This document shows positions 4,964-49,571 of a stretch of 64,000 bases of DNA, piece after piece. The DNA is taken from positions 122 to 64,121 of the forward strand of contig BLLT01000001.1 of NCBI GenBank assembly GCA_011958945.1, given 5' to 3'. Numbering within the stretch: position 1 is the stretch's first letter; the number at the start of each line of letters is the position of its first letter. The position numbers were made by a program, and so were the translations under genes. Below the pieces are notes generated by a model. It was given only the letters and a program-made list of their open reading frames with translations. It ran no database searches and was not told the origin of the DNA. The DNA is from Lachnospiraceae bacterium. GTDB lineage: Bacteria; Bacillota; Clostridia; Lachnospirales; Lachnospiraceae.

Positions 4964-5114
4964 GGGCAGTTCCCAATGGAAAGGCGGTGGTTAAAGCAGA
5001 AACGCATCGGGGAAAGCCCGATCTGACAGTATTCCGGGGGAAACCCCGTTCAGATAGAGCAGCAGACAACAAATAAAACAATCAAAAATCAAAATAAAAA
5101 AGGAGATCATTATT

Positions 5115-5492
5115 ATGCGTAGAACAGAGAATGTTACAGGAACAAAGGTAGCAGCAGAGGTAAAGGCAGGAAGGGGCGGATTGTCAAGAGTAAAAAAGAC
5201 AGTGGCGGCAGCTTGCGGTGCAGCATATCTTGCGGTCAATGGACTGCCTATGACGGTGTTTGCATCAGGTGCGGGAACAACCGCAATCACACAGCCCCTT
5301 GACAACTTAAAGACGCTTGTGATTGCGGTCATCGGTGCGGTGGGTGTGATTATCCTTGCAAAGAATGTCATGGAGTTTGCACAGGCATACCAGCAGCAGG
5401 ATTCCTCAACCATGAACTCGGCATTAAAGGGTATTGTAGCCGGGGTTATGATGGCGGGCATTTCCACTGTACTTACTTTTCTCGGTTTCTAA
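5115..5492 (+). CDS. Maff2-family small membrane protein (pilin/VirB2-like candidate)
   Basis: Signal-like N-terminus plus two hydrophobic helices. The AYQQQDSSTMNSALKGIVAGV motif resembles Maff2 proteins of clostridial conjugative elements. Strong SD AAGGAG. Confidence 0.65.
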   Translation: MRRTENVTGTKVAAEVKAGRGGLSRVKKTVAAACGAAYLAVNGLPMTVFASGAGTTAITQPLDNLKTLVIAVIGAVGVIILAKNVMEFAQAYQQQDSSTMNSALKGIVAGVMMAGISTVLTFLGF

Positions 5493-5561
5493 GAAAAAGC
5501 AGCAGCCGGGGAGGGCGGGGACAGCCTGCCCTTCCCTGAAAAGGAAAGAGGTGAGGATTAA

Positions 5562-6404: not shown

Positions 6405-6413
6405 GAGGGCTGT

Positions 6414-7508: not shown

Positions 7509-7529
7509 GAGCAGACAGGAGGTGTAAAG

Positions 7530-7952
7530 ATGGTAATTGAAATCAACAAGGATATAGACCGTTATAAGGAATCGGTTGTCATGGGGCTGACGGCAAAACA
7601 GCTTATCTTCTCTGTGGCATCGGTTGCGGCGGGCGGCGGGATCGTGCTGCTGTTGTACCGCTATATCGGTCTTACCCCCAGTGTGTATGTGGCAATCCCG
7701 GTTGCCGCCCCGATAGCACTTGGAGGGTTCTATTCATTCAACGGAATGGGGTTTTACGAGTATATGGGAAGAAAGATGCGTATGCTCTTTGCCAACCGCC
7801 CGCTTGCCTATTCGTCTACCGAAGGGGAGGAAACAATCCGTGAGATCCGCATGGAAGAAGAAGCGGGGAAAAAGACGGATAAAAAGAAAGGCGCAGATAA
7901 AGGCAGCGGGAAAAAGAAAAGCAACAAAAAGAATAAGAAAGGCAGGAAATGA
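7530..7952 (+). CDS. PrgI-family (VirB3-like) T4SS membrane protein with K-rich tail
   Basis: GLTAKQLIF plus two TM helices is typical of the PrgI family. Lies upstream of the VirB4 gene. Confidence 0.65.
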   Translation: MVIEINKDIDRYKESVVMGLTAKQLIFSVASVAAGGGIVLLLYRYIGLTPSVYVAIPVAAPIALGGFYSFNGMGFYEYMGRKMRMLFANRPLAYSSTEGEETIREIRMEEEAGKKTDKKKGADKGSGKKKSNKKNKKGRK

Positions 7953-8047
7953 GAGTGAAAAAGAAAACAGTGAAAGCAGTAGCAGGGATCATCGCAGTTG
8001 TAGTGACAGCCGTTATCGGCATGGTCATTTACAGGGCAAAGCATTAA
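7949..8047 (+). CDS. Mini-ORF, 32-aa single-pass membrane peptide (MRVKKKTVKAVAGIIAVVVTAVIGMVIYRAKH)
   Basis: ATG overlaps the PrgI-like stop (ATGA). Basic N-terminus, ~20 hydrophobic residues, YRAKH end. Paralogous to the next mini-ORF. Confidence 0.4.
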   Translation: MRVKKKTVKAVAGIIAVVVTAVIGMVIYRAKH

Positions 8048-8080
8048 GGGAACGCATAAAAAAGGAAAGGAGGCAGGCAC

Positions 8081-8167
8081 ATGAAAAAGAGGACAGGGAA
8101 AATCGTGGCAGTTGTTGCAGTCATCGCAGCCGCAGTCGGCGTGATCGTGTACAGAATCAGGCATTAG
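8081..8167 (+). CDS. Mini-ORF, 28-aa single-pass membrane peptide (MKKRTGKIVAVVAVIAAAVGVIVYRIRH)
   Basis: AGGAGG (8068-8073) lies 7 nt upstream of the ATG. Same architecture and YRxxH end as the preceding peptide. Confidence 0.4.
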   Translation: MKKRTGKIVAVVAVIAAAVGVIVYRIRH

Positions 8168-8178
8168 GAGGAAATCCA

Positions 8179-8694
8179 TTGATTAAAAGTATGGGGGAAA
8201 TGCTGGCAGCCGGGTGGTCTGATGGAATGAACATTCTGGAAGAGATAAGCCGGGAACTGGCAGAGAGACTGGTCAACAACAGACAGCCGTTTGTTCTGGT
8301 CCATGTGGAAAGCGATGGGGATGTGAGTTTTGAAGGGATTGCAGAATATGACTCTTCTGAACTCATACTGAACCTGTCAGACAGGTATGGGACACTCACG
8401 GAAGAAATGAAGGATATGGGCATAGACGATGTATTCTATCATGACGATTTTGCTAATGACGGAGGTCTTGTTTATCTGGAAGAGGGTACGGAGCTTACCC
8501 TGTATGAACAGGTTGACAATGAGGTAAATTTATCCGCTTTCCATTGTTATCTGTGTTCGGGGAAGAATATGGGAGATGTGTCAAAACTTCCTGCCGGAAG
8601 CTATCTCATGATTGATTGTGGCGAAACCATGCGCAAGGTCAGGGAACAGCTAAAGGAGGAGCGGGAGAAACAGCAGCGTACAGAACAGCGGTAA
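8179..8694 (+). CDS. Hypothetical protein
   Basis: 3-prime part of ORF 7720..8694. TTG at 8179 lies 6 nt after AGGAGGA (8166-8172); alternative ATG at 8191. The upstream part of the long ORF is an out-of-frame K/R-rich artefact. Confidence 0.55.
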   Translation: MIKSMGEMLAAGWSDGMNILEEISRELAERLVNNRQPFVLVHVESDGDVSFEGIAEYDSSELILNLSDRYGTLTEEMKDMGIDDVFYHDDFANDGGLVYLEEGTELTLYEQVDNEVNLSAFHCYLCSGKNMGDVSKLPAGSYLMIDCGETMRKVREQLKEEREKQQRTEQR

Positions 8695-8819
8695 AAAGTA
8701 ACTATAAATGGAATAACTGACCTTTATTGGTCGGAAAGTTCCGGTATCATGCAGCCGGGACTTTCCGGCTGCAATGCCTTATGGCAATGCTGAAAACAGC
8801 ATAGAAAGGAAGGTCGGAT

Positions 8820-11195
8820 TTGGGATTATTCGCAGACGGATTCAGGGAGCTGAAAAAAGCAAGTGAACCGCTTTACAAGGCGCCAAAATCCATACAACAG
8901 ACTATTGAGATCATGAAGGTGGCGGAAAACGGCATTTTTGAGGTGGCAAAAAACCGCTTTTCCAAGTGTTACCGTTTTCAGGACATCAATTACACCACTA
9001 CAAATGAGACAGAGCAGATTGACATTTTTGAGAGGTACTGCAAGTTTTTAAATTCTCTGGATGTGAGTTTCAAGATTACAATCAACAATAAAAACAAGGA
9101 CATGGAGCAGGTCAGGGACTATGTATTCTTACAGCGGAAGGATGACGGCTATGACGGTTTCCGCAGTATTTACAATAACATCATGGAACAGAAGATCCAT
9201 GAGGGCAGGCAGGGGATTGAGCAGGAGCGCTACCTTACCATTACCATTGAGCGAAAAAACTTTGAAGAAGCAAAGGCGCAGTTTGCAACCATTGAGGCAT
9301 CGGTGCATAAGGCGTTTGGGGAGCTTGGCGCAGAGATTGTGCCGCTGTCCGGCAATGAGAGGATCAAAGTGCTGTATGACTATTACCATCTGGGTGACGA
9401 AAACAGCTTTGACTTTGACATCAGGGAGGCAAGGAAAGTCGGGGCAGACTTCCGCAATGACCTGTGCAACGGCATGATACAGTTTTACCCTGATTATTTC
9501 AAGGATGAAAAGAAAGTTTGCCGTGCATTGTTCATCAAGAAATACCCGTCCAGTCTTTCAGACCGCTTTTTAAATGAGATCACAAGCCTTCCAGTACATT
9601 CAATCACAAGCATTGATGTTGTTCCTATCCCAAAGGATATGACAACGAAGGTCCTGCAGAAGAAATACCTCGGCATTGAATCGGACATCATCAAGCAGCA
9701 GCGTGTGAGGAACAAGAACAACGATTTTTCATCGGAAATCTCATACAACAAGCGGATTGAGAAGAAAGAGATTGAGGAAATCATGGACGATGTAAGGGAA
9801 AATGACCAGTGCCTTTATTATGTGTCCGTAACAATTATCCTTATGGCAGATACGAAAGAGGAACTTGACAGCATGACGGAGACGGTGGAAACCATAGGCA
9901 AGCGCAACTCCGTAACGATAGAGGAACATTATCTGAAGCAGAGAGAGTCCTTAAATACCGCACTGCCGATTGGTGTAAGACAGGTGGAAACCATGCGTAC
10001 CATGCTGACACAGAGCCTTGCGGTGCTTATGCCGTTCAACGTGCAGGAACTGAACGACAAACAGGGCTGTTATTACGGCATCAATCAGGTGTCAAAGAAC
10101 ATCAATATCGGCAACCGCAAAAAGCTGATTAACGGCAACGGCTTTGTGTTCGGTGTTCCCGGTTCGGGCAAGTCGTTCTTCTGTAAAATGGAAATGGGCA
10201 ATGTGTTCTTATCCGGCAATGATGAGATTATCGTCATTGATCCGATGAATGAATACTTTGACATTGCAGAGACTTACGGCGGAACAGTGGTAAATATGTC
10301 AACCTATACGGATAACTATGTCAATCCGCTTGACATGGATGTATGGAGTCTTGACCTTAACGACAGCAAGGGCATGATAAGGGAAAAAGGCGAATTTATG
10401 CTCGGACTGTGTGAACAGTGCATGGGGGAAAGCCTTAATTCAAGGCAGAAGTCTATTATTGACCGCTGTGTGCGCAAACTCTACATTGAGATAGCAAGGA
10501 ACAGGGAAAAATATGTGCCGATCATGTCCGATTTCTATGAAATACTGATGAACCAGCCGGAGGACGAGGCAAAGGATATAGCGTTGTCACTGGAACTGTT
10601 TGTCAACGGTTCGCTGAATATCTTCAATCATCAGACGAATGTGGACGTGGATAACCGCTTTACGGTGTACGGAATCCGTGATCTGGGTACGGAACTTTCG
10701 CCTATCACAATGCTTGTAATGATGGAGAGCATACAGAACCGTATCATTGCAAACGGCAAGAGGGGCATTGCAACATGGCTCTATATTGACGAGTTCCATG
10801 TGCTGTTAAATTCGGAGTATTCCGCTAAGTATTTACAGCAGTTATGGAAGAAAGTAAGAAAACAGGGCGGCTTGTGTACCGGGATTACGCAGAATGTCGT
10901 TGACCTGCTGCAAAATTATACGGCAACAACCATGCTTGCCAACTCGGAGTTTGTGGCACTCTTAAAACAGGCGAATACGGACAGTTCACGCATGGCGGAG
11001 GTCATTGGCGTGTCAGAAGCGCAGCTTCGGTTTGTAACCAACTCGTCAAGCGGTATGGGGCTTATGAAGTGCGGAAATGTGGTAATCCCCTTTGACAATA
11101 CCATTGAGAAGGGGACAGACCTCTACAATCTGTATAATACTAATATCCATGAGAAAATTGCAATGGAGAAGAAAAAGAATGGTGAACTGCAATAG
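8820..11195 (+). CDS. VirB4-family T4SS ATPase
   Basis: 791 aa. Walker A GVPGSGKSF, Walker B-like LYIDEFHVL, typical size and position. Confidence 0.9.
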   Translation: MGLFADGFRELKKASEPLYKAPKSIQQTIEIMKVAENGIFEVAKNRFSKCYRFQDINYTTTNETEQIDIFERYCKFLNSLDVSFKITINNKNKDMEQVRDYVFLQRKDDGYDGFRSIYNNIMEQKIHEGRQGIEQERYLTITIERKNFEEAKAQFATIEASVHKAFGELGAEIVPLSGNERIKVLYDYYHLGDENSFDFDIREARKVGADFRNDLCNGMIQFYPDYFKDEKKVCRALFIKKYPSSLSDRFLNEITSLPVHSITSIDVVPIPKDMTTKVLQKKYLGIESDIIKQQRVRNKNNDFSSEISYNKRIEKKEIEEIMDDVRENDQCLYYVSVTIILMADTKEELDSMTETVETIGKRNSVTIEEHYLKQRESLNTALPIGVRQVETMRTMLTQSLAVLMPFNVQELNDKQGCYYGINQVSKNINIGNRKKLINGNGFVFGVPGSGKSFFCKMEMGNVFLSGNDEIIVIDPMNEYFDIAETYGGTVVNMSTYTDNYVNPLDMDVWSLDLNDSKGMIREKGEFMLGLCEQCMGESLNSRQKSIIDRCVRKLYIEIARNREKYVPIMSDFYEILMNQPEDEAKDIALSLELFVNGSLNIFNHQTNVDVDNRFTVYGIRDLGTELSPITMLVMMESIQNRIIANGKRGIATWLYIDEFHVLLNSEYSAKYLQQLWKKVRKQGGLCTGITQNVVDLLQNYTATTMLANSEFVALLKQANTDSSRMAEVIGVSEAQLRFVTNSSSGMGLMKCGNVVIPFDNTIEKGTDLYNLYNTNIHEKIAMEKKKNGELQ

Positions 11196-11266
11196 ATAGT
11201 CACACTTTGACAATACAGGGTTAAGGACAGGGCTTGTGGCTCTGTCCTTGCAGATTGGAGGCTGTT

Positions 11267-11881
11267 ATGAATATTACGGATATAATCCTTGTGACGGAAA
11301 ACCGCAAAGGGAGCGAGACAAATTCAATTATGGATTTACTTGATTTCATTGATTTTGCAGAGAAAGAGAGCTGGCTGTCATTGAAAGAACTTGCGGAGGA
11401 TATGGCGGCACTTGGAATAACGTGCGGGGGAAAAGAAAAGTGGATGGAGAGTTGTTTTGCGGAGAACACAACACTTTTTGCAAGGTACTGTGCAGATGAA
11501 AAGCAACTGGAAACATTTTTGCAGGGAGGCTATAACACGGATAAGGAATGGAAATTTGATGAACAGAGATGTTCCGAAAATTGTCTTGACTTCCTGAAAG
11601 AGTTGGGTATCAGCACGGATAAAAGGTCAGGGCAGGATCATGGAACGCATGGGCAGATGAAGAAACTGGACGAACACCATTCCCGTCTGCAAAAACAGTT
11701 CAATCTTTTCTATACGCTGTCCCAGAATGAGCTTGCAACCGACAGTATTAAAAATGAAGCGATAAAGGCAATGTATGAAGAATTTGGAACAGGCAGGCGG
11801 GAAGTATTCCAGAAAAATCTTGAGAGCGGAAAGTACGATTCGGGCTTTGCCCATGAGGAAAAGCAGAAGAGGGCAAGGTAA
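11267..11881 (+). CDS. Hypothetical protein, paralogue of 14645..15562
   Basis: ATG 11267 after GGAGG. N-terminus MNITDIILVTENRKGSE matches MKLEDMILVVENRKGTE, and the two C-terminal ends also match. Confidence 0.6.
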   Translation: MNITDIILVTENRKGSETNSIMDLLDFIDFAEKESWLSLKELAEDMAALGITCGGKEKWMESCFAENTTLFARYCADEKQLETFLQGGYNTDKEWKFDEQRCSENCLDFLKELGISTDKRSGQDHGTHGQMKKLDEHHSRLQKQFNLFYTLSQNELATDSIKNEAIKAMYEEFGTGRREVFQKNLESGKYDSGFAHEEKQKRAR

Positions 11882-11885
11882 TATG

Positions 11886-11932
11886 ACAGCATTTGCGGCA
11901 TCTAAGCCATATGGTTTAGGTGCTGTTTTTTT
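11886..11932 (+). terminator. Candidate intrinsic terminator/attenuator inside the conjugation operon
   Basis: ACAGCA..TGCTGT stem enclosing a near-palindrome CTAAGCCATATGGTTTAG, followed by a run of 7 T. Confidence 0.5.
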
Positions 11933-11956
11933 GCCCTGAAACGGAGGTGGTGCAGA

Positions 11957-13996
11957 TTGAACATCAAAAAAGTGGATGACAAGCCAATGGTGATCCACAC
12001 AAAGGAAAAGCCTAAAGTCCATGTAAAGGGAGCGCCTGCAACAAAAATCAAGGGCAGGAATATCCTTACCGTACAGCACGGTCCGAAGATTGCCGGAAGT
12101 ACGGCAGAGAAAAGAGTGGCGGCAGACGGGAAGATAAAGTTAAAAAGGAGTTCTCTCAATGTCACAGATAAAAGGAAAACGGTGCAGACAAAAACAGCTA
12201 CTGACGGCATGGAATATAGGGGCAGAAACGGCGGAAGCGCACAGGGCAGAGACGGGGACAGGAACACGCAGGGCAGACAGGGAAAAGAACAGGAAGTGCG
12301 GCAGTCCGTGAACAAAGAAAACCGTATGTATGCCCAGTACCGTATAGCGAAAGCAGAAAAAGAGGCGGCAATTAAAAAGAAGTCTGCACTTCCTTCCGGT
12401 ATTGCTTCCGTGGCGGCTAGGACTGCATTAGATGAAATGGAAGGCGGTAACGAAGTCCATGATGCATACATGACAGCTTACACGCTGGCAAAGCCTGCCA
12501 CAAGCGCCGTGGATGCGGGCAGGAATCTTTACCGTTCAAAGGCGGCAAAAACAAAACAGGATAAAATCAGGAAAAAACAGTTAAAAAGCTGTATCAAGGA
12601 AAAGGCGGTAAAGGAAAGTGCGGTAAAGACAGCAAGGAAAACCGCACAGGCAGCGGCAAAGGAAACGGCAAAAGAGACAGGGAAGAAAGCGGCGAAAGAA
12701 ACGACAAAAGCTGCGGCAAAGACGGCAGCAGCAACGGCAGGAACAGGGGTAGGCGGTGTACTTGCCGGAATTGCGGCAGGCGAAGCCGTAGGGATCGCTA
12801 TGGATAAGCGTGATGTGAAAAATTCCACAAGAAACCGCATGATAAAGCTGTTTGTGGCAAAGCTGCGGCAGGAAGATAATCAGGACAGCTTAGGAAAAGC
12901 CTTAAAGGATATTGTCCTGATGCGCTTTTCCATGATGGCAAAGTATATCGTGCGGTATGTGGGGCTGTTCCTGCTTGCGCTGTTTGCGGTAGTGGCGCTC
13001 ATCGCACTCCCGATCATTGCGGTCATAGCAGTTATTTACAATTCGCCGTTTGCGGTATTCTTCCCGTCCATATCATCGGGGGAGACGACACAGGAAGTCT
13101 TATCGGCATATGTGTCGGAATTTAACGATGAGGTCAATGCGGAACTTGCAGACTATTCAGGGTATGACACAAGCGAGAAAATCTACGTCAATTTTGAAGG
13201 CTCCGGCACACCGGACAATTTCTGCGACATACTCATGGTCTACATGGTAAAGTACGGGGACGGCGACACGGCAACGGATATGACGGATAAGGCAAAGCAG
13301 AACTTAAAAGCCGTCTTTGACGATATGTGCAGCTACACCATTACCAGCAGGACAGACACGGAAACCGATGATGAGGGCAATACGACAACCACGACTGTCA
13401 AAGAGGTTAATGTGGAACTGAAAACGTGTTATGACATGATTTCCGTCTATGGGTTCAATGCGGAAGAACAGGAAATGCTTGCCGATCTGATGAAGCCGGA
13501 ATATCTTGCAATGATCGGCTACACTGGCGGGGGCGGCGATCCGGGGGAAACGGTTTCGCCTGAACAGTATCAGGCAATCGTGGATGCCATTTCTGACGAA
13601 AACGGAAGGAAGGTCGTGGCGTTTGCTCTGTCAAAGGTAGGATACCCGTACAGTCAGGCATACCGTGACAGCGGGAACTATTACGATTGCAGCTCCCTAG
13701 CCTACTATGCATGGCGCAGTGCGGGGGTAAGCATCATGTATGAGGGTTCCAATACGGCGGCAAGTGAGGGGAAATACTGCTATGACAACAACCTGCTTGT
13801 GAACTATGACGAGATGCAGCCGGGGGACCTGATATTTTACAGTTATGACAGGAACGGGCGCTTTATGAACATTACGCATGTGGCGATTTATGTTGGCAAT
13901 GGAAAGGTAGTTGAGGCGGCAAATGCACGGCTTGGGGTAGTATACAGACCAGTGCAGGGGCGTTCTTCCATTGTATTCATAGGCAGACCGAGATAG
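11957..13996 (+). CDS. T4SS-associated cell-wall hydrolase (K/A-rich N region, TM segments, C-terminal NlpC/P60 domain)
   Basis: C-terminus has YYDCSSLAYYAW (catalytic Cys) and ITHVAIYVGNG (His). TTG start 7 nt after GGAGGTGG. Confidence 0.85.
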   Translation: MNIKKVDDKPMVIHTKEKPKVHVKGAPATKIKGRNILTVQHGPKIAGSTAEKRVAADGKIKLKRSSLNVTDKRKTVQTKTATDGMEYRGRNGGSAQGRDGDRNTQGRQGKEQEVRQSVNKENRMYAQYRIAKAEKEAAIKKKSALPSGIASVAARTALDEMEGGNEVHDAYMTAYTLAKPATSAVDAGRNLYRSKAAKTKQDKIRKKQLKSCIKEKAVKESAVKTARKTAQAAAKETAKETGKKAAKETTKAAAKTAAATAGTGVGGVLAGIAAGEAVGIAMDKRDVKNSTRNRMIKLFVAKLRQEDNQDSLGKALKDIVLMRFSMMAKYIVRYVGLFLLALFAVVALIALPIIAVIAVIYNSPFAVFFPSISSGETTQEVLSAYVSEFNDEVNAELADYSGYDTSEKIYVNFEGSGTPDNFCDILMVYMVKYGDGDTATDMTDKAKQNLKAVFDDMCSYTITSRTDTETDDEGNTTTTTVKEVNVELKTCYDMISVYGFNAEEQEMLADLMKPEYLAMIGYTGGGGDPGETVSPEQYQAIVDAISDENGRKVVAFALSKVGYPYSQAYRDSGNYYDCSSLAYYAWRSAGVSIMYEGSNTAASEGKYCYDNNLLVNYDEMQPGDLIFYSYDRNGRFMNITHVAIYVGNGKVVEAANARLGVVYRPVQGRSSIVFIGRPR

Positions 13997-14005
13997 GCGG
14001 TGTGT

Positions 14006-14611
14006 ATGGCAAAGAAGAAAGAGAAAGAAAACCTTATGGAAGAACTGGCAAAATCCTTTGAACGGTGGGAATATTTGCGGGATCATGGCGGCAGCGATCC
14101 CTTTTATGCAGACGGTGGCAGCATGAACCTTGTGAGAAACCACATCATGTATCATAAACAGAAGATGGTGGAACAGTATGGCTCGGATTATGAAAAATAC
14201 CCGGAAATTTTCTACCGGGAAGTGCCGCCGAAAGTACATGATGATTATATGGCAAGGGCGGGGGAGATAAAGAACGGTGCGGCGCAGGCGCTGGAATATT
14301 ATCTGTCTGATCCCAATTTCCATTATCTCCTTGCAAATAAGGATATGCTGACAGAGAAAGAGGCAAAGCAGATAAGCCTTTATAACGTGCTTGGGTATGC
14401 CTCCGGGCTTGCGAGAGCCATAAAGGATGGGGATTTGATTGCAATGCGCCGTCATGCGGGCAGACCGGAGGGTTATCTGGAGTCCTTTGCCCAGTGTGCC
14501 ACACGGATGATGAAAGTAATAGATAGTAAGAAAAAAGAGCCGGAACAGGTACAGGGAAGCGGACAGCTTTCTTTGTTCCAGTTTGGCATGGAGACAGGGC
14601 AGTGCCGATAG
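14006..14611 (+). CDS. Hypothetical conjugative-element protein
   Basis: 201-aa ORF from ATG 14006 (the track starts at GTG 14000). No motif recognised. Confidence 0.55.
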   Translation: MAKKKEKENLMEELAKSFERWEYLRDHGGSDPFYADGGSMNLVRNHIMYHKQKMVEQYGSDYEKYPEIFYREVPPKVHDDYMARAGEIKNGAAQALEYYLSDPNFHYLLANKDMLTEKEAKQISLYNVLGYASGLARAIKDGDLIAMRRHAGRPEGYLESFAQCATRMMKVIDSKKKEPEQVQGSGQLSLFQFGMETGQCR

Positions 14612-14644
14612 GTGCTGCCTTTTGTGCGGATATAAGGAGGGAAC

Positions 14645-15562
14645 ATGAAGTTAGAGGATATGATTTTGGTGGTGGAAAACCGGAAAGGGACGGAAAACAA
14701 TTTTTTACTGGACCTGACGGATTATATGGGGGATGTATTAGGGCTGTGGGATGATGGTTATGTAGTGGAGAATATTGCCGGAAGAATAAGCGAACTGTAT
14801 GGAACAAAAAAGGAAAAGGCAGACTGGAGCGATCTGTATATTGCGGCAAACAAGAGTATCCATGCATCATTCTGCAGGAGCGAATCGCAGTTAAGGGGGT
14901 TTCTTGCGGGACATTTCAATGACGGCGAATGGTCGTTTGATACGGAACGCTGCTCTAAGGACTGTCTTGATGTCCTGCGGATATATAACATGCAGCCGGA
15001 CGGAAAGCAGGTGTTCCCGTACCTGCACTATGAGCGTGTAGAGCATACTTTCCATGCCGGGGAGGTGCTTCGCAACATGAATGGGAGCGATTACCGTGTG
15101 CTTGCGGCATTAAGCCCCCAAAACCTGCTGTTAATGAGCGAGCCGGACGGACAGATCATAGTAGGGAGAGGCGTAAACCTTTATGAGAGATACCCCAAAG
15201 GGGAACGTCCTGACAGCGACAGCGTGGTTACGGGCATAGAGTGGGATCACGGCGTTTATCTTGGAAATGACATTACAAGGATTGACTTTGACATTCTGAA
15301 ACAGGAATACGGGGAGCCTGACAGGGCAGAGAATGTCTCAGACCTGCGGAATGTGGTACGGCGGGATTTCTGGATGCAGAAGAACGTGGAACAGAAAGAG
15401 CGGATGCCGCACAGGGTAAGAAATGCAGCAAGGGACTGTCTGGAAAATACTTTTGGGACAAGTGAGCCGGAGGTATTCGACAAGATGCTCGACAAGGGAA
15501 TATATGACGGAATGTACCATGCAAAGGAAGAACAGAAACAAATATCAGGGCAGCAACGCTAA
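14645..15562 (+). CDS. Hypothetical protein, longer paralogue of 11267..11881
   Basis: Strong SD AAGGAGGG. Shares N- and C-terminal segments with 11267..11881 and has an extra central ~100 aa. Confidence 0.6.
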   Translation: MKLEDMILVVENRKGTENNFLLDLTDYMGDVLGLWDDGYVVENIAGRISELYGTKKEKADWSDLYIAANKSIHASFCRSESQLRGFLAGHFNDGEWSFDTERCSKDCLDVLRIYNMQPDGKQVFPYLHYERVEHTFHAGEVLRNMNGSDYRVLAALSPQNLLLMSEPDGQIIVGRGVNLYERYPKGERPDSDSVVTGIEWDHGVYLGNDITRIDFDILKQEYGEPDRAENVSDLRNVVRRDFWMQKNVEQKERMPHRVRNAARDCLENTFGTSEPEVFDKMLDKGIYDGMYHAKEEQKQISGQQR

Positions 15563-15579
15563 AAAAGGGGGAAAATCAT

Positions 15580-15951
15580 ATGGAAAGAATGGCAGGAAAA
15601 GAAACGGTTAAGAACATGGAGCATCTGGTAAAGCTGCTGCATAAGGAGTGGGAGCGTTCCGGCAGGACAAAGGCAGAGGTGTCCATAGACATCACGGACA
15701 AAAAGGAAGTCGGGGCAAAACTTACGGCGGAGATTCAGGAAAGGCAGGAGCAGCTTGAAGCGGTGGAAACGGACTTTAAGGAGTGCATGGAGCTTTCCAG
15801 AGAGAATTTCGTACTCCTGCGCCTTGCAAGGAAGATAAAGAAAGCAGCGGACAGGGCAGAGCGCCGGGAAGAGTCTGTTTCCTTTACCGTGGAAATGGAT
15901 AAGGAAGAATATAAGCTGTTTTCCACGCTGATCAGGGTACAGGAGGCATAG
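15580..15951 (+). CDS. Hypothetical coiled-coil protein
   Basis: 123-aa ORF with SD GGGGGA. E/K-rich. Confidence 0.5.
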   Translation: MERMAGKETVKNMEHLVKLLHKEWERSGRTKAEVSIDITDKKEVGAKLTAEIQERQEQLEAVETDFKECMELSRENFVLLRLARKIKKAADRAERREESVSFTVEMDKEEYKLFSTLIRVQEA

Positions 15952-15957
15952 GGCATA

Positions 15958-16521
15958 TTGGGAAAGAAATATAACATCATTTATGCCGATCCCCCGTGGC
16001 AGTATAAAGTGTATTCCAAAAAGGGGGAAGGGCGAAGTGCAGAAAACCATTACCATACAATGAACATTGAGGATATAAAGTCACTGCCTGTTGAAAGGAT
16101 AGCCGATGACGACTGTATCCTTTTTTTATGGATTACTTTCCCCTGTCTGCTGGAAGGAATCTCTGTCATGGAGGCATGGGGGTTTACCTATAAGACCTGC
16201 GGGTTCAACTGGGTAAAACGGAATAAAAAAGCTGATACATTCTTTATGGGACTCGGATTCTGGACACGCTCCAATTCGGAAATCTGTATTCTTGGAACAA
16301 AGGGCAGACCAAAGAGGGTATCAAAAGCTGTTCCGCAGGTGTGTGACGCACGGATCATGGAACACAGCAGAAAGCCGGACGAGATACGGGATCGGATTGT
16401 GGAACTGTGCGGGGACCTGCCACGGATAGAACTGTTTGCAAGGCAGAGATTTGAAGGATGGGACTGTCTTGGGGACGAGATAGACGGCAGGGACATCAGG
16501 AAAGCAATATTGGAGGTATAA
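15958..16521 (+). CDS. MT-A70-family N6-adenine DNA methyltransferase (orphan)
   Basis: DPPW catalytic motif (IIYADPPWQY) and LWITFP motif. No adjacent restriction endonuclease. Confidence 0.8.
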   Translation: MGKKYNIIYADPPWQYKVYSKKGEGRSAENHYHTMNIEDIKSLPVERIADDDCILFLWITFPCLLEGISVMEAWGFTYKTCGFNWVKRNKKADTFFMGLGFWTRSNSEICILGTKGRPKRVSKAVPQVCDARIMEHSRKPDEIRDRIVELCGDLPRIELFARQRFEGWDCLGDEIDGRDIRKAILEV

Positions 16522-16524
16522 CGA

Positions 16525-19500
16525 ATGAGCGCAGATACAAAAACATCAAAGCTGTATGATGCCGCCATAGATGAAGTGACCGCAAGCGGGCAGGCATGGA
16601 AAAGCATATGCAGGCTTACGGGGCGGCTCTACCGCTATGAGTTTGACAATATCCTCATGGTCTACAAGCAAAGACCGAGGGCAACGCTGATTGCGGATTT
16701 CGACACATGGAAAATGGTAGGGCGGTATGTAAGGCGTGGCAGCAAGGGCATCGCAATCTTCCCTTCAAGAGCCTTAAAGCCGGGTATGCGGTATGTTTTC
16801 GACATATCCGATACCGGGGGCAGGGAAAGCCGCCTCACATGGGAGCTTGACCGGAACACCATGAAAGCGTATGCGGGGTGGTTACGGGACAAAGAGGGCA
16901 TTGTCCCGATGGAGAAAGAGGGTGCTGCCCTGCCCGAAGGAAAAGAATCTGATAAATCTTTCTTAAAAGACTTTACAGAAAGGCAGATCGGAGTCATAAT
17001 GGACTCAGAATTTGGTGAACGCATTACCGAGTTCGTGAATCTGGCTGGAAACAAACAGATAACAGAAAATGGCAGAGCGCAAGAGATTACGGCAGGGGAA
17101 GCGTTAAAAAGAAGCGTCATGTATGCGGTATTTACAAGATGCGGCTTTGACCTTTCCACTGAAAAACAGGATTTCTCCTTTATTACCGCATTTACAACAG
17201 AGGAGGAAGTCTACCGTTTAGGATCTCTGCTCAGCGATATATCCTGTGAAGTGCTGAGAGGCATTGCAAATGATTTAAAGCAGATGGAAGAAAGGAGTAT
17301 TGCAGATGGCAGAGATAACATTGACGTATCACGAGGGAGCGGACGGGATGCTGTACCCGGACCTCACGGCACCGGAGGAAACGGTGAGCATGACGAACTT
17401 AGGGAAATTCGCAGTGAGGGCGATGGAGTACCTGAAGGAGAACCACAACAGCAGATACCGGACGCTGCAGAGGTTCGGGAAACTGGCGGAGAAGATGCAG
17501 GAAGTGGAGGACGAGGCGAACCGGATGATGGACGAGCTGGAGGGCAGCTACTTGAAGAACAACCCGCCGAAGGACAAAAACTCGACAATGGAGATGTGGC
17601 AGCTACGCCAGCAGGCGAGGATGCAGGCAGAGGAGATCGTGATGAACGAAATCGTGATGAAGTTCCATTAGAGGAAAGCGGACAGCAGACAGAGGACAGT
17701 GAACAGCAGAATATAAGGAAAACAGAACTTGACCGGGAAATCGAGCAGGAACTGAATGAGATCAATTCTTTAGGGAGTTCTGATACGCAGAAAGGAAGCT
17801 ATGAACAGGCTTCCTTTTTGATTGCCCAAAACGGGGATATGAAACTGCCGGAAGAATATTCCTACCAGAAGCCGGAACAGGCGCTTACCGTTCCGCATGA
17901 GTATGTAAAACAGGTGCTTATGCGTGGCGGCGTGTATTCAGGGAGCAAAAAACGCATTTATGCGGCATTTCAGGATATTTCCGATCCAGGAGAACGGGTA
18001 AAGGCAATCCGCAGGGAATACGGACAGGGCGGTGCAGGCTGGCCCCTTGAAGGGGACGGGCTGCACGGATATGACACCTTTTCTTCAAAAGGACTCCGCT
18101 TCCAGTGGCGTGAGGGCGGAATGGAAAAGGAGGGCTATGTCAACTGGAAAGCCATAGAGCGTGAACTGGGTGCGCTGATCATGACAGGGGAATATTATAT
18201 CCCGCCAAAGGCATTTGATCCCGACAAGGTATCGGCGGCGGTATGGCAGGAGGTCATGGATGAATTTTTCCAGAACAGCTTCTGGAGTCCGATCCCGAAC
18301 ATGCTGTTATATGAGGTGTTCACGAAAGACCTGCCCATGAGTGACAAAGCGCAGTTCATTGAAAGGATGTTCTGCAAAAGCCCTTATGCAGCCAGCATAT
18401 CAAACAACTTTGAAAATGAATACGGCAGATGCAATATTGAGCAGACAAACGAAGGCATTTTCATTGAATATTTTGACGGGGAAGGCACGAAATGGAAAAC
18501 GGAGCTTGACTGGTGGGACTGTGCGGCTTATGTGGAGAGCATGATAGCCGATGGCGTATATCAGATAGAAGCACCTTATTCTGAAATCGACAGTATGTTG
18601 AAAGAAAATTCTGCTGTATCGTGGATAGAGATTTTAAAAGAAGATACGGACAAATATCTTTCGGAGGATGCAGGGCGGCATCAGCAGAACCGCCTGGACA
18701 CGATACAGGAAGTCCTCGAAGCCAAAGGTCTGCAGGAGCGGTTGGAAGTAACATGGGATGATGCCTATGATGAAATTATTGCAAGCGACGGGGAAACCGT
18801 ATGGCACGGCAGGCAGTTTTACGACTATCTGTTTGAGGAAGTGCTTGAGTTTGGTGAAATCCGCAGGGATAGCAAGCTTACGTTTCAGGTACAGATGCAG
18901 CTTGAGCATGACAGATATTCAAGCCATAATCCGGAAAAGACAGAATCTATCCTGCGGAAAACCTCTGGTTTGGCAGAGCCTGCCGCCGAAGAAGCTGAAA
19001 AACAGGAAGAAAACCTGTGGCTGGAACCGTTAAAGGGCTACTTCAATAAGGAAATCCAGTATATATCCGTAAAGACGCTGATCTATGACATTTTTACCAC
19101 AAATCTGAACATGGAAAGCAAGGCGGGGTTCCTTGCAAGTGTGTACGGTGAACAGTGGGAAGGCTTTTTTATGTCGGAGTACACGGATAATCCCTATGGC
19201 AAATGTAAAATCAGCAGGGATAAGGACGGCATTGAAATCTCTTATCCACGGGCAGACGGCGGGGAAGGTAAAAAGCGGGTGGATTACCGATACTGCGCTG
19301 ACCTGATCCTGCACATGATAGAGGAAAACGACTATCTGACAGAGGGAATATTTGAGCGGTTCAAAGAAGCCCCAAAAGCATTTACCGCAATGCCGTGGTT
19401 CATGGAAATCTACCATGAATATAAGGAACGTATGCTGCAGGAGCCGGACTTTGTGGCGGTCAGCATTGACGGGCAGGAGGAAGAAAGACAGGAAGGACAG

Positions 19501-22500
19501 GAGCCGGAGACAGCAGCGGAAGAAATATCGGAAACACTGCAGACGGTGGAAAACGGACAGGAAGAAATACCGGAAACATGGCAGACGGAGGAAAACGGGC
19601 AGGAGGAGATACCGGAAGCATGGCAGACGGAAGAAAGCGGGCATGAAGAAACAGCAGAAACACGGCAGGAACAGGAAGATACGCAGGAAACGGCAGAACG
19701 TGTGGAGGGGGAGATATTAAACTCTGACGGGAGCGTGGCAAAGCCCGTTGCGGGCAGTCTGTTCCCGGAAGCTCTGCGGCAGGTAGAGGCAATGGACGAG
19801 GATCTGCGTGATGCGCTGGAAATCTATCTGACAAAATGTTCCGCAGTCGTGCCGTACCAGCCGTTTTTGGTTATGGTAGCAGAAAGCAGCCTGCCAAAAG
19901 AGGATAAGCTGTATTTCTTAAACCGCACCATAAACCATATGGAGGATAAGGAGCAGACAAAGGCATACCATAACAATGCCTACGGTTTGGTGGAGTATAT
20001 CCAGAGCAAAGATGCTTTCATGGCGGATCTCAAGACACGGGACGGGGAGAGGAAGAAGTTTTCTGCAACCTATGAACAGCTTTATTCCATAATGGAATAC
20101 CTGATCCGGGCGAAATCGTTTGTCATACAGCGGAACATCAATGAATATGTGGCGGAATATGCCAGAACGCCTTATGAGAAAAAATCCGCCTTAGAAAAAC
20201 AGTTTGAGGACAAGGTTCAAAACCTCAAAAACAGGCAGCGCAAAGGAAACTTCCATTTTGGGGACGAAGAACTGCCAAAAGGCGGGCAGAAAACGAGATA
20301 CCAGTGGAATGTGGAGGCAATCCGGCTGTTAAAGCAGATAGAGCGTGAGGACAGGACTGCCACGCCGGAAGAACAGACGGTGCTTGCCCGGTATGTGGGA
20401 TGGGGCGGCATAGCGCAGGCTTTTGACGAAAGGAATGAGGGCTGGCAGAAGGAGTATGCGGAACTGAAAGAGCTTCTTTCCACGTCGGAATATGCGGACG
20501 CAAGGGAGACAGTCAACACGGCATTTTACACTTCCCCCGTCATCACGCAGGCAGTTTACGGTGCATTGGAAAAATTCGGTTTCAAAAAAGGGACCATATT
20601 AGAGCCGGCGCTTGGCGTCGGTCATTTTTTTGGAACGCTGCCAGAATCCATGCAGGAAAGCAGGCTCTATGGCGTGGAAAAGGACGACATCAGCGGGCGG
20701 ATCGCAAAGCTGCTGTACCCGAAAGCACAGATAAAAGTAAGGGGGTTTGAGGAAACACAATACCCTGACAACTTTTTCGATGTTGCGGTGGGCAACGTGC
20801 CTTTCGGGGATTACAAGCTGTATGATGCGAAGTACGCAAAGCATAATTTCCGCATCCACGATTACTTTTTCGCAAAGGCGCTGGATAAGGTCAGACCGGG
20901 CGGCATTGTGGCGTTCATCACAAGCAAGGGAACGCTTGACAAGGCGAACCCTGCGGTAAGGAAGTACCTTGCGGAACGGGCGGAGCTGCTCGGCGCAATC
21001 CGCCTGCCCAACACGGCTTTCAGGGACAGTGCGGGAACCGATGTCACAAGCGACATCATATTCCTGCAGAAGAGGGAGCGCAAGATTGTGACGGAGCCGG
21101 ACTGGGTGCATCTTGGCAGGACGGAGGACGGCATTGCGGTCAATTCCTATTTTGCGGAACACCCGGAAATGATGCTCGGAACAATGGAGTACGATACACG
21201 CATGTTCGGCAATGGCAGCAAATACACAAGCTGCATCAACCATGACGAAAACTTTGACCTGAAATCCGCACTTGAAACGGCAGTAGGGCAGCTTTCCGGC
21301 AGGATAACCGACGTGGCGGAGCTTGCGGCGGAAGAGGAAAAAACGGAGGACATCATTGAAGCAGATCCCGACGTGAAGAATTATACTTATACCTTTGTGG
21401 ACGGAAAACTCTATTACCGTGAAAATTCTGTCATGTACCGAAAGGAAGTATCGGCAACGGCGGAAGAACGAATACGGGGCATGGACGAAATCCGCACGGT
21501 CACAAGACAGCTTATCTTCATACAGACGGAAGGGTGCAGCAGTGAGGAACTGGCGGCACAGCAGAAATTACTCAATGAAAAGTACGATGCCTATGTGAAA
21601 AAATACGGACCGCTGACCGGAAGGGGGAGCCAGCAGGCATTCCGTGACGATGCGGATTATCCGCTTCTGTGTTCCCTTGAGGTCGTGGACGAGGACGGAA
21701 GGGTGGAAAAAGCGGATATGTTCTACAAACAGACGATCCGTGCGAAGAATCAGGTGGAGCGTGTGGAAACGGCGGTGGAGGCGCTGAACGTGTCCGTCAA
21801 TGAGTTTGGGACGGTCAATATCCCGTTCATGTTAAGCATTTATGAGCCTGACATCAGCAAAGAGATGGAAAGCCTGCCGGAAGGCAGCACACTCTCACCA
21901 GATGCGGAAGCGGAAGTAAAGAGGGCGGTACTCTTAAAAGACCTTGAGGGGCTTGTGTATCTGGAACCAACGGAATACAACCCTGACAACCTGAACACGG
22001 GATGGAAAACGGCGGATGAATACCTGTCCGGCAACGTGCGTGACAAGTTAAGGATTGCGGAAGTGTACCAGAAAGAGAACCCGGAATTATTCGGTATCAA
22101 TGCGGAAGCACTGAAAAATGTGCAGCCGGAACGCCTCGATGCGTCGGAAATCGACGTGCGTATCGGAACCACATGGATCGAACCGCAGGATTATGAGCAG
22201 TTCATCTATGAGCTTTTGAAAACACCGCCCAGAGCAAGGGCTATGCGGACGGAATGGAGCAGCACGGGCATACAGGTAAAACTCAACACCTACAACATGA
22301 ACTGGTTCATTGATGGGAAACGGCATGACAACCATTCCATCGCCGCAACGGAGACTTACGGCACGAAGCGGATTGATGCCTATTCCATTTTTGAGGAAAC
22401 CTTAAACCTGCGCACGGTTACAGTCCGTGACAGGATAGATGACGGGGGCGGGAAGTACCACTATGAGGTAAATAAGAAGGAAACCATGCTTGCAAGGGAA

Positions 22501-25209
22501 AAGCAGAACCAGATGAAGGAGGCGTTCAAAAGCTGGATATTCAAGGATCAGGAACGGCGGCAGAAATATGTGGATTATTACAATGAGACATTCAACAATA
22601 TCCGCCTGCGGGAATATGACGGCTCACACCTGACATTCCCCGGCATGAACCCGGAAATCAAGCTGCGTGACCACCAGAAAAACGCAATCGCAAGAGTCCT
22701 TCTCGGAGGCAACACCCTGTTAGCGCACTGTGTAGGGGCAGGGAAAACATTTACCATGATGGCGGCATGTATGGAACAGCGGCGGCTCGGTCTTGCCAGC
22801 AAGAATGTCATCGTAGTGCCGAAGTCCATCGTGGGGCAGACAGCGGGGGAGTTCATGCGGCTGTACCCGTCCGCAAATATCCTTGTGGCAACGGAGCGTG
22901 ACTTTGAGAAGAGCAGGAGGAAGCAGTTTGTGTCCCGTATCGCAACCGGGGACTATGACTGCATCATCATGTCCCACTCGCAGTTTGAGAAGATACCAAT
23001 TTCAAAGGAACGGAAAGAGCGTATGCTGCAGGCGCAGATACAGGAAATCTCTTATGCGATTGATGAAATCAAGGCGGAAAAGGGGGAGCAGTGGACCATC
23101 AAGCAGATGGAGGCACAGAAGAAAAAACTGGACGAACAGCTAAAGGAACTGACGGAGGAAAGCCGCAAGGATGACCTGATCACGTTTGAAGAACTGGGCA
23201 TTGATTCTGTCATGGTGGACGAGGCGCATCATTTTAAAAACTTGTCGATTTTCTCCAAAATCAACAATGTATCGGGCATATCCAGCACTGGTTCCAAAAA
23301 GGCAATGGACATGTACCTGAAATGCCAGTACCTCGATGAGATTAATGATGGCAGGGGCATTGTGTTCGCAACCGGAACCCCGGTAAGCAATACCATGTGC
23401 GAACTGTATGTCATGCAGCTTTATCTTCAGAAGAGGACGCTGGAGCGCATGGGAATTTACCATTTTGATTCATGGGCGGCGAATTTCGGTGAAGTGACAA
23501 CCGCACTGGAACTGACCGTGGAAGGCAGCGGGTTCCGCTTTAAGAGCCGTTTCAACAAGTTTACAAACGTGCCGGAGCTTATGACTTCATTCCGTGAGGT
23601 GGCGGACGTGCAGACTTCCGATATGTTAAACCTTCCGGTTCCCGCATTGAGGAGCGGCAAGCCGATCATCGTGGAAAGCGAGCCGGACTGGTATGTGAAG
23701 CAGGTCATGGAAGAATTTGCGAAACGTGCGGAAAGGATACATGGCGGCGGCGTTGATCCGAAAGAGGACAATTTCTTAAAGATAACGGGGGAGGCAAGGC
23801 TTTTAGGAACGGACGCAAGGCTTCTGGAACTGGATGCGCCGAATAACCCGGACGGGAAACTGAATAAGGTAGCAGCAAACGTGGCAGCCGAATATTTTGC
23901 CGGGAATAAGGACGGTAAGATCGGCTGCCAGCTTATTTTCTCGGACATCGGCACACCGAAAACGGCATGGACGCCGGACTGGGCGGAGTGCATAAAGAAC
24001 GGCGGGCAGTTTGACATTTACAATTACCTGAAAACCGAACTGGTAAAACAGGGCATCCCGGCAGAGGAGATTGCTTTCATACACGACGCAAAAACTGACG
24101 CACAGCGGGAGGCGCTTTTCAAGGATATGAGGAGCGGAAAAAAGAAGATACTGATTGGTTCCACGGATCAGTGTGGGACGGGCGTAAACGTGCAGGCGCA
24201 CATCACGGCAATGCACCACGTAGACTGCCCGTGGAAGCCCTCATGTATAGAACAGCGTGAGGGGCGTGGCGTAAGGCAGGGCAACGAGAATGATGAGGTG
24301 GCAATCTACCGCTATGTTACAAAAGGGACATTTGACGCATATTCATGGTCGTTGGTGGAAAACAAGCAGCGTTTCATTTCGCAGGTTATGACAAGCAAGG
24401 CTGTGTCAAGAACCTGTGAGGACATTGACGAGGCAACCCTTTCCTATGCGGAGATAAAAGCCGTAGCGACGGGCAATCCGCTGATAAAAGAAAAAATGCA
24501 GCTTGAAAACGATGTGCAGCGGCTGAAAATGCTGAAAAGCAGTTATGACAGCCAGAGGTATTCCCTGCAGGACAACTTCATGATCCGTTACCCGAAGTTA
24601 ATAAAGGCGGCAACAGAGAAACTAGACTGTGTGCGTGAGGACACAAAGACAGCAGAGGCGGCGCTCATTGCGGAACCGGATTTTGCGATTACCGTGGACG
24701 TTGCCGGAAAAAGCACAAAATTCACGGAGCGCACGGACGGCGGGACATTCATGCTGCAGGCGGTCAGCCAGTGCAAAACCGGGGAAATAACCCATATCGG
24801 AAGTTTTAAAGGGTTTGAGCTTCTTGTGGAGAAGAACTTCATCGGGGTAAACAACATGGTGCTGCGGGGAAAGACCGACTACAAGACGGAGCTTTCCACA
24901 AGCCCCGTGGGTAACATGGTAAAGCTGGAAAATCTTTGCCACGGCATACAGGTCAATATCCCGGAACTGGAAAAGCGCATCGAGCAGTACCAGCGTGACA
25001 TGGAGCAGTCAAAGCAGGAATACGAAAAGCCTTTTACACAGGAAGAGGAACTGAACGAGAAAGTGGCACGGTTAAACGAACTGAACGTGCAGTTAGACTT
25101 GGAGAACGGAAAGACCGAAGATGTAGATCTCTGCGAAACACAGGACAATGCAAGGGTAGCGGAACCGGGAAATTACCACTGTGTTCCGCCCGGAAAGGAG
25201 GGAAGATGA
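16525..25209 (+). CDS. Polyvalent conjugative-element protein: ArdC-like N domain, disordered linker, several helical domains, N6-adenine methyltransferase domain, SNF2/DEAD-type helicase
   Basis: 2,894-aa uninterrupted ORF. Methylase motif VGNVPFG (~20787), helicase Walker [11 protein letters not shown] (~22717), DEAHHFKN (23218), helicase-C QCGTGVNVQ (~24170). Confidence 0.9.
17306..17671 (+). CDS. Embedded +1-frame ORF encoding a TnpV-like small protein (121 aa)
   Basis: AAAGGAG (17291-17297) lies 8 nt before ATG 17306. Product pattern [25 protein letters not shown] resembles TnpV of clostridial transposons. G/C-ending codons dominate in this frame. Confidence 0.5.
19519..19686 (+). repeat. 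42-bp (14-codon) in-frame tandem repeat, 3 good copies plus 1 degenerate copy, inside the polyvalent ORF
   Basis: Units at 19519, 19561, 19603 and 19645. They encode EEI(S/P)E(T/A)(L/W)QT(V/E)ENGQ-type acidic repeats. Confidence 0.85.
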
Positions 25210-25838
25210 TACGGAAAATCTTGGCGGCAATATTTATTACGGCGGGACTGGCGGCTATGTCAGTCCCCCTTTTCTATCATTTCTACGGGAGTCATAAAAC
25301 CGACAGGCTGATAGAGCAGTTTGAGCAGAGCGTGGGACAGGAGCATATGGAGGATGATGAAAAAGAGGAAGAAAGAAAAACGGAGACGGCGGCGGATACC
25401 CAAGCCCCCATTAGTGAAGAGGATGCAGCCCTGCTTTCGTCCGGGGACGTGATCGGTCTGATCGAGATAGAAGCCTTAGACCTGAAATATCCCATCGTGG
25501 AAGGGGCAGACAGTAAACAGCTTGCTTATGGGATCGGGCATATCCCTGACACGGCGGCAGCCGGCAGCAAGGGGAACTGTGTGCTTGCCGGACACAGGGG
25601 GAGCAGGTACGGAACTTATTTCAAATACCTTAACAGGCTTGCGGAGGGCGATGTGGTAAGGATTACGGATAAAGAGGGAAACGTGCATCTGTATGAAGCC
25701 GTTTCATGGGAAGTCGTGGGACCGTATGACAATTCCGTGAAAGCACAGGGGGAAGAAAGGTCGCTTACCCTGCTGACCTGTGAGAACAGCGGGACAATGC
25801 GGCTGATTTACCACTGTATCTACAAGGAGGGCGAATAG
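25206..25838 (+). CDS. Sortase-family transpeptidase
   Basis: N-terminal TM anchor, VLAGHRG (His) and LTLLTC (TLxTC Cys) motifs. ATGA overlap with the upstream stop. Confidence 0.8.
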
Positions 25839-49569: not shown

Positions 49570-49571
49570 GA

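Follow-up and report, generated by a model that had tools for sequence, protein, structure and literature searches.

A tnpV-family gene nested out of frame in the giant polyvalent-protein gene of a Lachnospiraceae conjugative element: a very probable dual-coding gene pair

The DNA analysed here (the window) is a stretch of 64,000 nucleotides from a Lachnospiraceae bacterium (assembly GCA_011958945.1, contig BLLT01000001.1, positions 122 to 64,121 of the forward strand), and it is an integrative conjugative element (ICE) with a type IV secretion system (T4SS) and serine recombinases. One of its genes is a giant open reading frame (ORF) that encodes a protein of several domains, and within this ORF, on the same strand, lies a second, complete ORF in the +1 frame, as (17306-16525) mod 3 = 1 (Table 1). 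The nested ORF has its own Shine-Dalgarno (SD) sequence, ATG and TAG, and its product, whose C-terminal end is ...NEIVMKFH, is a small, separately initiated protein encoded by a mobile element, in the size range of about 110-125 amino acids (aa). An original prediction, made from the letters of the window, had given the coordinates of this ORF, its SD and spacing, its frame and its product, and all of them were reproduced from the window sequence.

The composition of the two frames is strongly biased over the overlap. G/C-ending codons make up 102 of the 121 codons of the nested ORF, a recount that agrees with the earlier hand count, and the G+C content at third codon positions (GC3) is 0.843 versus 0.58 across the giant ORF. 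The earlier proposal that codons of the giant (host) frame begin with G or C across the overlap is borne out at host codon position 1, where GC reaches 0.94 at 17425-17574, in the middle of the overlap; translation of the host frame also yields the low-complexity peptide that had been described there. An antisense ORF of 133 codons (17364-17765, minus strand) mirrors the overlap region and probably results from the extreme GC bias by codon position.

Table 1. Features of the giant gene and of the gene nested in it, in window coordinates.
Feature	Position	Strand	Basis
Giant polyvalent ORF, 2,894 aa; host frame of the overlap	16525..25209	+	ORF and Pfam domains
ArdC-N-like (single-stranded DNA-binding type) N-terminal domain, aa 1-255	16525..17289	+	Weak Pfam match and tblastn
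Shine-Dalgarno AAAGGAG of the nested gene	17291..17297	+	8 nt before ATG 17306
Host-frame linker, about aa 261-400; acidic, Gly-rich, low-complexity	17305..17724	+	Translation, composition, 69-homologue alignment
Nested tnpV-family gene	17306..17671	+	121 codons and TAG (17669-17671), +1 frame of the giant ORF
Eco57I-type N6-adenine methyltransferase motif region, aa 1411-1489	20755..20991	+	Pfam
ResIII/SNF2/DEAD helicase ATPase core, aa 2044-2248	22654..23268	+	Pfam
Helicase_C domain, aa 2513-2586	24061..24282	+	Pfam

The nested product belongs to the TnpV family. The hmmscan search that the original prediction had proposed for this family call gives a full-length match to Pfam PF14198 (E 7.3e-25, 87.5 bits, the gathering cut-off being 27 bits), with residues 12-117 aligned to profile positions 5-111 of 111. 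Searching 5.8 billion proteins yielded 73 homologues, each with PF14198 and several of them under the NCBI name 'TnpV protein'; the closest come almost exclusively from contigs of a few kb or less, which fits gene callers reporting TnpV only where the end of a contig cuts the giant ORF. An AlphaFold2 model based on a 22-sequence alignment has a pLDDT (predicted local distance difference test) score of 81.5 and consists of an N-terminal beta-hairpin followed by four helices. Foldseek searches with this model give a best E of 0.7 in PDB and of 0.25 in BFVD, neither of them significant; comparison of a TnpV profile with PDB sequences yields nothing meaningful, a scan of the product against NCBIfam gives no match, and the only PHROGs match is to one family of unknown function.

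For the TnpV of Tn4451 an Xis-like role in excision has been postulated only (PMC3158075). The nested product shares with the TnpV of Tn4451/Tn4453-type elements the family, a size of about 115-125 aa, a conserved N-terminal TY-x-E/G-DG-x-L-x-P motif and a conserved C-terminal AEE-x-V helix, and both occur on Firmicutes mobile elements that use large serine recombinases (PMC3158075). In Tn4451-like elements (L093, L098), however, tnpV is free-standing directly after the tnpX recombinase gene, and its alternative frame has stops and a normal frequency of T at third codon positions (T3). In the window tnpV is instead inside another gene and about 30 kb from the recombinases; adjacency to tnpX is a trait of the Tn4451 archetype and not of the Pfam family.

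The two-frame arrangement is conserved. A scan with the TnpV alignment, using one genome per GTDB species, found 80 loci at 100-55% TnpV identity, and contig look-ups added five more. Where the TnpV ORF is full and uninterrupted, which holds for the window and for 83 loci, the host frame crosses it without a stop, compared with 7-18 stops in the third frame; the loci outside this set are L057, truncated by a contig end, and L025, which has a premature TGA. The spanning ORF starts about 750-900 nt 5' of TnpV where the contig permits, and most of these ORFs have 2,100-2,900 codons. An alignment of 69 homologous host proteins has no indels and no stops over the overlap, and in the same proteins the 20 residues just past the TnpV stop are hypervariable (52% gaps).

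The same arrangement is found much further away. A tblastn search of PLSDB gives TnpV matches at 28-42% identity beneath giant genes annotated as 'SNF2-related' or 'helicase-related' in Clostridium perfringens, C. botulinum, Enterococcus faecalis, Listeria seeligeri, Bacillus cereus/thuringiensis and Virgibacillus. Additional giants were located through the N-terminal domain or a purpose-built hidden Markov model (HMM), and 14 plasmid giants were inspected, including those of Monoglobus, Cohnella, B. wiedmannii, L. monocytogenes, a second E. faecalis type and Anaerococcus prevotii. In 13 of them a TnpV-like ORF of 112-139 codons can be recognised, and the A. prevotii giant has at the same place a 144-codon +1 ORF whose TnpV match is marginal (E 1.5). 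In all 14 the nested ORF, with its own SD and ATG, is in the +1 frame and begins 620-790 nt from the start of the host gene; the host frame is without stops (11-20 in the third frame where counted). The original prediction had proposed to look for +1-frame stops in homologues: the +1 ORF, with its SD, ATG and stop, is intact in 84 of 85 full-length loci (100-55% identity) and in the 14 distant plasmid giants. Since no giant of this class lacking the nested ORF was found among those examined, presence and absence do not settle whether the segment is an insertion or ancestral.

An open host frame over so long a stretch is not expected by chance. When the synonymous codons of TnpV are resampled with the codon usage of the same giant ORF, 4-11 host-frame stops are expected in each of 68 distinct Lachnospiraceae-type sequences, and the probability that the frame is open ranges from 7e-9 to 7e-3 per sequence. 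The 12 deep plasmid lineages have no stop where 3.5-14.5 would be expected, with probabilities from 2e-2 to 2e-12 and a summed log10 P of -82. A host-frame stop arises where T as the last base of a TnpV codon is followed by AA, AG or GA, and such contexts are common because TnpV is rich in Glu, Asp, Lys and Asn. T is in fact found at only 7.8% of TnpV third positions, versus a background of 28%, and every lineage, independently of the GC content of the host, shows an increase of about 0.24 in the GC3 of TnpV.

Free-standing members of the family serve as controls. The frame equivalent to the host frame has 2 stops in L086 (between divergent helix-turn-helix genes), 4 in L093 (Tn4451-like, after a serine recombinase), 14 in L094 (a Klebsiella IncHI2 plasmid) and 7 in L095 (Heyndrickxia coagulans plasmid pMSR0), and T3 in these four is 14-38%; a fifth copy, L098, which hardly differs from L093, has 4 stops, with a T3 of 16%. 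The pMSR0 copy (2492-2878 on a 6.8-kb plasmid) has a T3 of 30% besides the 7 stops in what was the host frame, and it appears either to have escaped the dual-coding constraint or never to have been subject to it.

These data bear on the possibility that the locus consists of three ordinary adjacent genes (ArdC-N-like, tnpV and a downstream methylase/helicase) and that the 2,894-codon ORF is an artefact of a GC3-rich tnpV. High GC3 alone does lower the frequency of stops in an alternative frame, and the annotation made by the Prokaryotic Genome Annotation Pipeline (PGAP) has TnpV and a shortened downstream gene in L001 and in Monoglobus L096. However, in none of about 100 loci is there a stop that ends the N-domain gene, the frame is open in only 2e-2 to 7e-9 of the synonymous resamplings per sequence, the depletion of T3 tracks nesting and is absent from free-standing TnpV, and the composition of the host frame is selected beyond openness, as described below. 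We therefore regard the three-gene arrangement as highly unlikely.

Selection can be followed in each frame separately. Pairwise differences at TnpV positions 1, 2 and 3 are 0.351, 0.225 and 0.475 (at about 56% TnpV identity), so that the least variable site is TnpV position 2, which is host position 3; moreover, aa identity in the host frame is 35% where that of TnpV is 56%. The order 3 > 1 > 2 together with the lower host identity means that purifying selection follows the embedded frame. This agrees with the original prediction that the embedded frame is the primary coding frame, and it is not the pattern of purifying selection in the host frame only, the outcome that had been named as contrary to that prediction.

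The host peptide was compared with an exact sampling of synonymous TnpV sequences conditional on the absence of host stops. Hydrophobic residues (FILMVWYC) make up 12.8% of the host peptide where 19.3% would be expected (z < -2 for 67 of the 69 sequences); F, Y, W and C fall 4-100 fold below the conditional expectation, Lys is depleted about 2.4-fold, and Glu and Asp are enriched 1.5-1.7-fold. Even at sites where no stop could form T3 is 11%, versus the 28% background. The host product is thus selected as an acidic, Gly-rich, non-sticky tether, beyond mere openness. The suggestion that the giant ORF reads through the region as a disordered linker is thus in keeping with a host frame that is always open and with a peptide that is acidic, Gly-rich and poor in aromatic residues and Cys beyond what resampling of TnpV yields. 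Evidence of selection is found on both frames.

The start of the nested gene is conserved as well. An AGGAG-type SD (with few variants), a spacing of 6-8 nt and an ATG are kept in 71 of 71 distinct sequences while the flanks diverge, similar SD motifs are present in distant plasmid lineages, and the stop after ...KFH is also conserved. RNAalifold finds no consensus structure at the nested ribosome-binding site, and the start region folds less stably than shuffled sequences (mean z +0.64); unstructured start regions are typical of accessible initiation sites. Translational coupling by the unfolding of an RNA structure at this site was considered and rejected on the same two results. No internal terminator for tnpV was found.

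An SD-like element within a translated ORF is also a known stimulator of frameshifting, as in prfB and dnaX, and a programmed +1 frameshift could in principle produce an ArdC-N-TnpV fusion, with the internal SD acting as in prfB. In the window the TnpV frame is indeed open for 9 codons 5' of the nested ATG. In C. perfringens, B. cereus and Cohnella, however, a TnpV-frame stop stands directly before the ATG, which excludes entry by an upstream frameshift in these lineages; moreover, the ATG is invariant in all sequences with the canonical 6-8 nt SD spacing, no conserved slippery or hungry-codon motif is present, and a frameshift leaves the open host frame across the whole overlap unexplained. 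A programmed frameshift is therefore extremely unlikely.

An error of assembly or sequencing could also have joined the ORFs in the window, and some metagenome-assembled genome (MAG) loci do have frameshifts in the giant gene (L004, L003, L046, L079). The same frame relation is found, however, in isolate genomes and in independently sequenced complete circular plasmids, and we give such an artefact next to no credence. In L004, an Acetatifactor-like MAG, a frameshift separates the N-domain from the rest of the giant ORF (4784-5518 and 5431-9150); the frame is continuous on contig L002, whose TnpV is identical to that of L004, and the frameshift is probably an assembly error or a recent pseudogene.

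It could also be argued that the TnpV-like ORF is a compositional ghost, or a relic that is not expressed: only the giant frame would be translated, and the +1 ORF would persist because the linker is nearly neutral. Other alternative-frame open stretches of at least 80 codons do exist, about 2 per giant gene, the gene tables of nine giants (L087-L092, L099-L101) give the giant gene only, and TnpV of L025 has a nonsense codon. Against this stand the full-length Pfam match and the autonomous genes among the homologues, the confident AlphaFold2 model, and an ORF, SD, ATG and stop position that remain intact from 100% to about 25% identity. TnpV position 2, that is host position 3, changes least, the opposite of what is expected if only the host frame were coding. 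The other alternative-frame ORFs have neither Pfam matches nor positional conservation: none of the five further open stretches of at least 80 codons in the giant ORF matches Pfam, and across 58 giants the position of such stretches is at most patchily conserved. We consider a relic very unlikely.

One of these stretches (19340-19720, +1 frame, 126 codons) was examined as a candidate second nested gene and rejected. Its product is R/K-rich and without a Pfam match, and since a similar stretch occurs at that offset in only 18 of 58 giants, it is taken as a compositional by-product. The region includes a 42-bp tandem repeat in 3.6 copies (19518-19689), which encodes a second acidic linker of the giant protein and gives rise to the open +1 stretch.

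The two genes are in conflict in current annotation. In the plasmid gene tables of the nine giants named above only the giant gene is given under the TnpV match, and the L102 table gives only a truncated ArdC-like gene. In MAG L001 (ORF 9220-17676, 2,818 codons) PGAP annotates TnpV and cuts the downstream gene to 2,279 aa from 10837; in Monoglobus L096 (ORF 8154-15833, 2,559 codons) it annotates TnpV and an SNF2-related protein from 11265; in both, the large gene is made to begin at a Met further 3'. In Cohnella L097 (8115-14375) TnpV is in the table and the 2,086-codon ORF is missing from it; PLSDB tables leave out pseudogenes, so that absence here means absence from that table. The problem is systematic: what annotation pipelines lose is TnpV in some cases and all or part of the giant gene in others.

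On this evidence the nested tnpV and the giant gene very probably form a true dual-coding pair, one stretch of DNA read in two frames. Both frames, the SD and ATG and the codon signatures are conserved by selection, and from the sequences both products are predicted to be synthesised. The original prediction had left two endings, of which the genuine overlapping gene pair stands, both frames being conserved by selection, while the stowaway insertion does not fit the window, since the arrangement is ancient and all giants of this class that were examined have it.

Several points weigh against this reading or against parts of it. In L025, a Lachnoclostridium MAG (10001-10366), TnpV is interrupted by a TGA at codon 37 (RFA*RA) while the host frame is open; it is the sole interrupted TnpV among about 100 loci, and the TGA could be a recent loss or a sequencing error. 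The per-sequence probabilities of openness are not fully independent, as the sequences are related, yet more than 12 lineages are at <45% TnpV identity to each other. The Pfam, NCBIfam, PHROGs and fold searches assign TnpV no function and thus offer no functional reason for the nesting. In the search for a separate tnpV promoter one sigma-70-like site (16972-17000) was found, not above shuffle expectation; co-transcription with the giant gene is therefore the default inference, and tnpV would be transcribed with the conjugation operon. Finally, the direction of evolution discussed below would follow from codon usage and free-standing homologues, neither of which is decisive.

The giant ORF is a polyvalent protein gene in the sense of Iyer et al. 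2017, because an ArdC-N-like domain, a methylase and an SNF2/helicase are combined in one polypeptide. The ArdcN Pfam match of the N-terminal 255 residues is weak (E 0.022, below the cut-off); a tblastn search with this domain matches 357 plasmid records, several of them annotated as 'ArdC-like ssDNA-binding domain-containing protein' or 'ArdC family protein'. Residues 41-100 and 201-260 of the giant protein are well conserved among the 69 homologues. The first 122 codons or so of the linker that follows share their DNA with tnpV, in the other frame.

The neighbours of the giant gene on the same strand encode a T4SS coupling protein, a VirB4-like ATPase, an NlpC/P60 hydrolase, an MT-A70 methylase and a sortase, that is, a conjugation neighbourhood. 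The MT-A70 methyltransferase gene (15958-16521) ends 4 nt 5' of the giant ATG and the sortase gene (25206-25838) has an ATGA overlap with the giant stop, a spacing which shows that the giant gene is tightly packed in an operon. Two different types of adenine methylase are thus present on the element (MT-A70 and Eco57I-type). Three tandem genes of large serine recombinases (Resolvase, Recombinase and Zn_ribbon_recom domains) at 47887-52834 are probably the integration module of the ICE. Past them lie defence-like genes: one encoding an OLD/GajA-like protein with AAA_15 and TOPRIM domains (54606-56672), followed by a 572-aa ORF (56704-58422) and then by a gene for a SMEK/NACHT protein (59462-63217).

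The polyvalent proteins described by Iyer, Burroughs, Anand, de Souza and Aravind in 2017 resemble the giant protein in joining an ArdC-N-type domain, a DNA methylase and an SNF2 helicase and in their location in a conjugation cluster; the nested gene is an extra layer absent from that description, and the terms TnpV, overlapping, frameshift and out-of-frame are all absent from the main text of Iyer et al. 2017. In the literature on TnpV, on polyvalent proteins and on overlapping genes in conjugative elements we found no description of this nesting, and the pair is unusually long, widely conserved and apparently undescribed.

As for its origin, codon usage is the usual criterion by which the older frame of an overprinted pair is told from the derived one. 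Compared with the giant gene, the TnpV frame is near normal (z -1.3) and the host frame in the overlap is aberrant (z -6.1), and the TnpV frame is the closer to the codon usage of the gene in 53 of 63 sequences. From these values TnpV looks like the older frame and the linker like the derived one. TnpV identities define two subfamilies, in each of which nested and free-standing genes are interleaved, which means that changes of state occurred more than once: for example, the free-standing TnpV of pMSR0 is 48% identical to the nested Virgibacillus copy (L092, 9001-9351), and the nested TnpV of Monoglobus and Cohnella are closest to free-standing Tn4451-like copies.

A mechanism can be proposed for this genetic arrangement. 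Ribosomes that start at the giant ATG (16525) would read through the overlap in frame 0 and make an acidic, Gly-rich, probably disordered tether of about 125 residues, joining the ArdC-N-like N-terminal domain to the rest of the methylase/SNF2-helicase protein, while other ribosomes would start independently at the nested SD and ATG and make a separate, folded TnpV-family protein. The constraint at the aa level would be carried by the TnpV frame, and the host frame would be accommodated through the synonymous sites of TnpV: avoidance of T-ending codons would prevent both host stops (T followed by AA, AG or GA) and T-initial host codons (Phe, Tyr, Trp, Cys), and preference for G-ending codons would give Gly, Glu, Asp and Ala in the host peptide. 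Read-through across a pre-existing tnpV probably gave rise to the giant gene, or has long been kept up by it, and a small autonomous gene would in this way have become an interdomain linker. The nesting may serve the co-inheritance and co-expression of TnpV with the polyvalent protein. More tentatively, and with some doubt, we suggest that the giant gene engulfed an autonomous tnpV and has used its alternative frame as a linker since, and that TnpV is a dedicated partner (a chaperone, regulator or co-effector) in transfer or establishment.

Same-strand nested genes are a known kind, which includes comS in srfA, GndA in gnd and rpmH in Thermus; in bacteria they are few, mostly microproteins of 30-50 aa with a narrow distribution, and comS is cited as one of the only two such ORFs that had been characterised in bacteria before 2019 (PMC11230408). 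Like tnpV here, comS of Bacillus subtilis is a small gene wholly within a giant multidomain gene (srfA, srfAB), on the same strand, out of frame and with its own start. It encodes 46 aa. Unlike tnpV, it is limited to the B. subtilis group and overlaps an enzymatic domain of a non-ribosomal peptide synthetase, whereas the 121-codon tnpV is part of a Pfam family in which free-standing genes also occur, is found in Clostridia, Bacilli and Tissierellia, and overlaps a disordered linker, apparently the younger frame.

GndA of Escherichia coli likewise lies within a coding sequence, gnd, on the same strand but in a shifted frame, and its SD and start are conserved (PMC11230408). It differs in being a microprotein of 36 aa with a limited distribution and a presumed de novo origin within the enzyme gene, whereas in the tnpV pair the inner frame is under the stronger constraint and is probably ancestral. 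Overlaps of the lambda Rz/Rz1 and phiX174 type are fully embedded +1 genes with their own ribosome-binding site on a mobile element, and the overprinted partner tends to be disordered or biased in composition. These phage overlaps involve lysis or structural genes whose products are known to act together, whereas the pair described here is on a conjugative element and its host protein is polyvalent, with about 2,100-2,900 aa. The tnpV pair differs from the known nested cases in being longer, in belonging to a recognised family, in its spread over much of the Bacillota and in that the large gene apparently overprinted its partner.

A dual-coding state maintained across Clostridia, Bacilli and Tissierellia for a 121-codon gene of a recognised family, with a folded protein in one frame and a disordered tether in the other, and with free-standing relatives as 'release' controls, lets the sharing of a sequence by two frames be studied in unusually clean form. 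Since point mutations can be chosen that are silent in one frame and destroy the other, the hypothesis is directly testable in cultivable carriers, such as the plasmids of E. faecalis, C. perfringens and B. cereus. If the engulfment of tnpV and its role as a partner were true, this would be the longest and phylogenetically deepest bacterial nested gene pair known, systematically missed or mishandled by annotation. The nesting ties the TnpV family physically to polyvalent anti-defence and establishment proteins, and it suggests where the function of TnpV should be sought.

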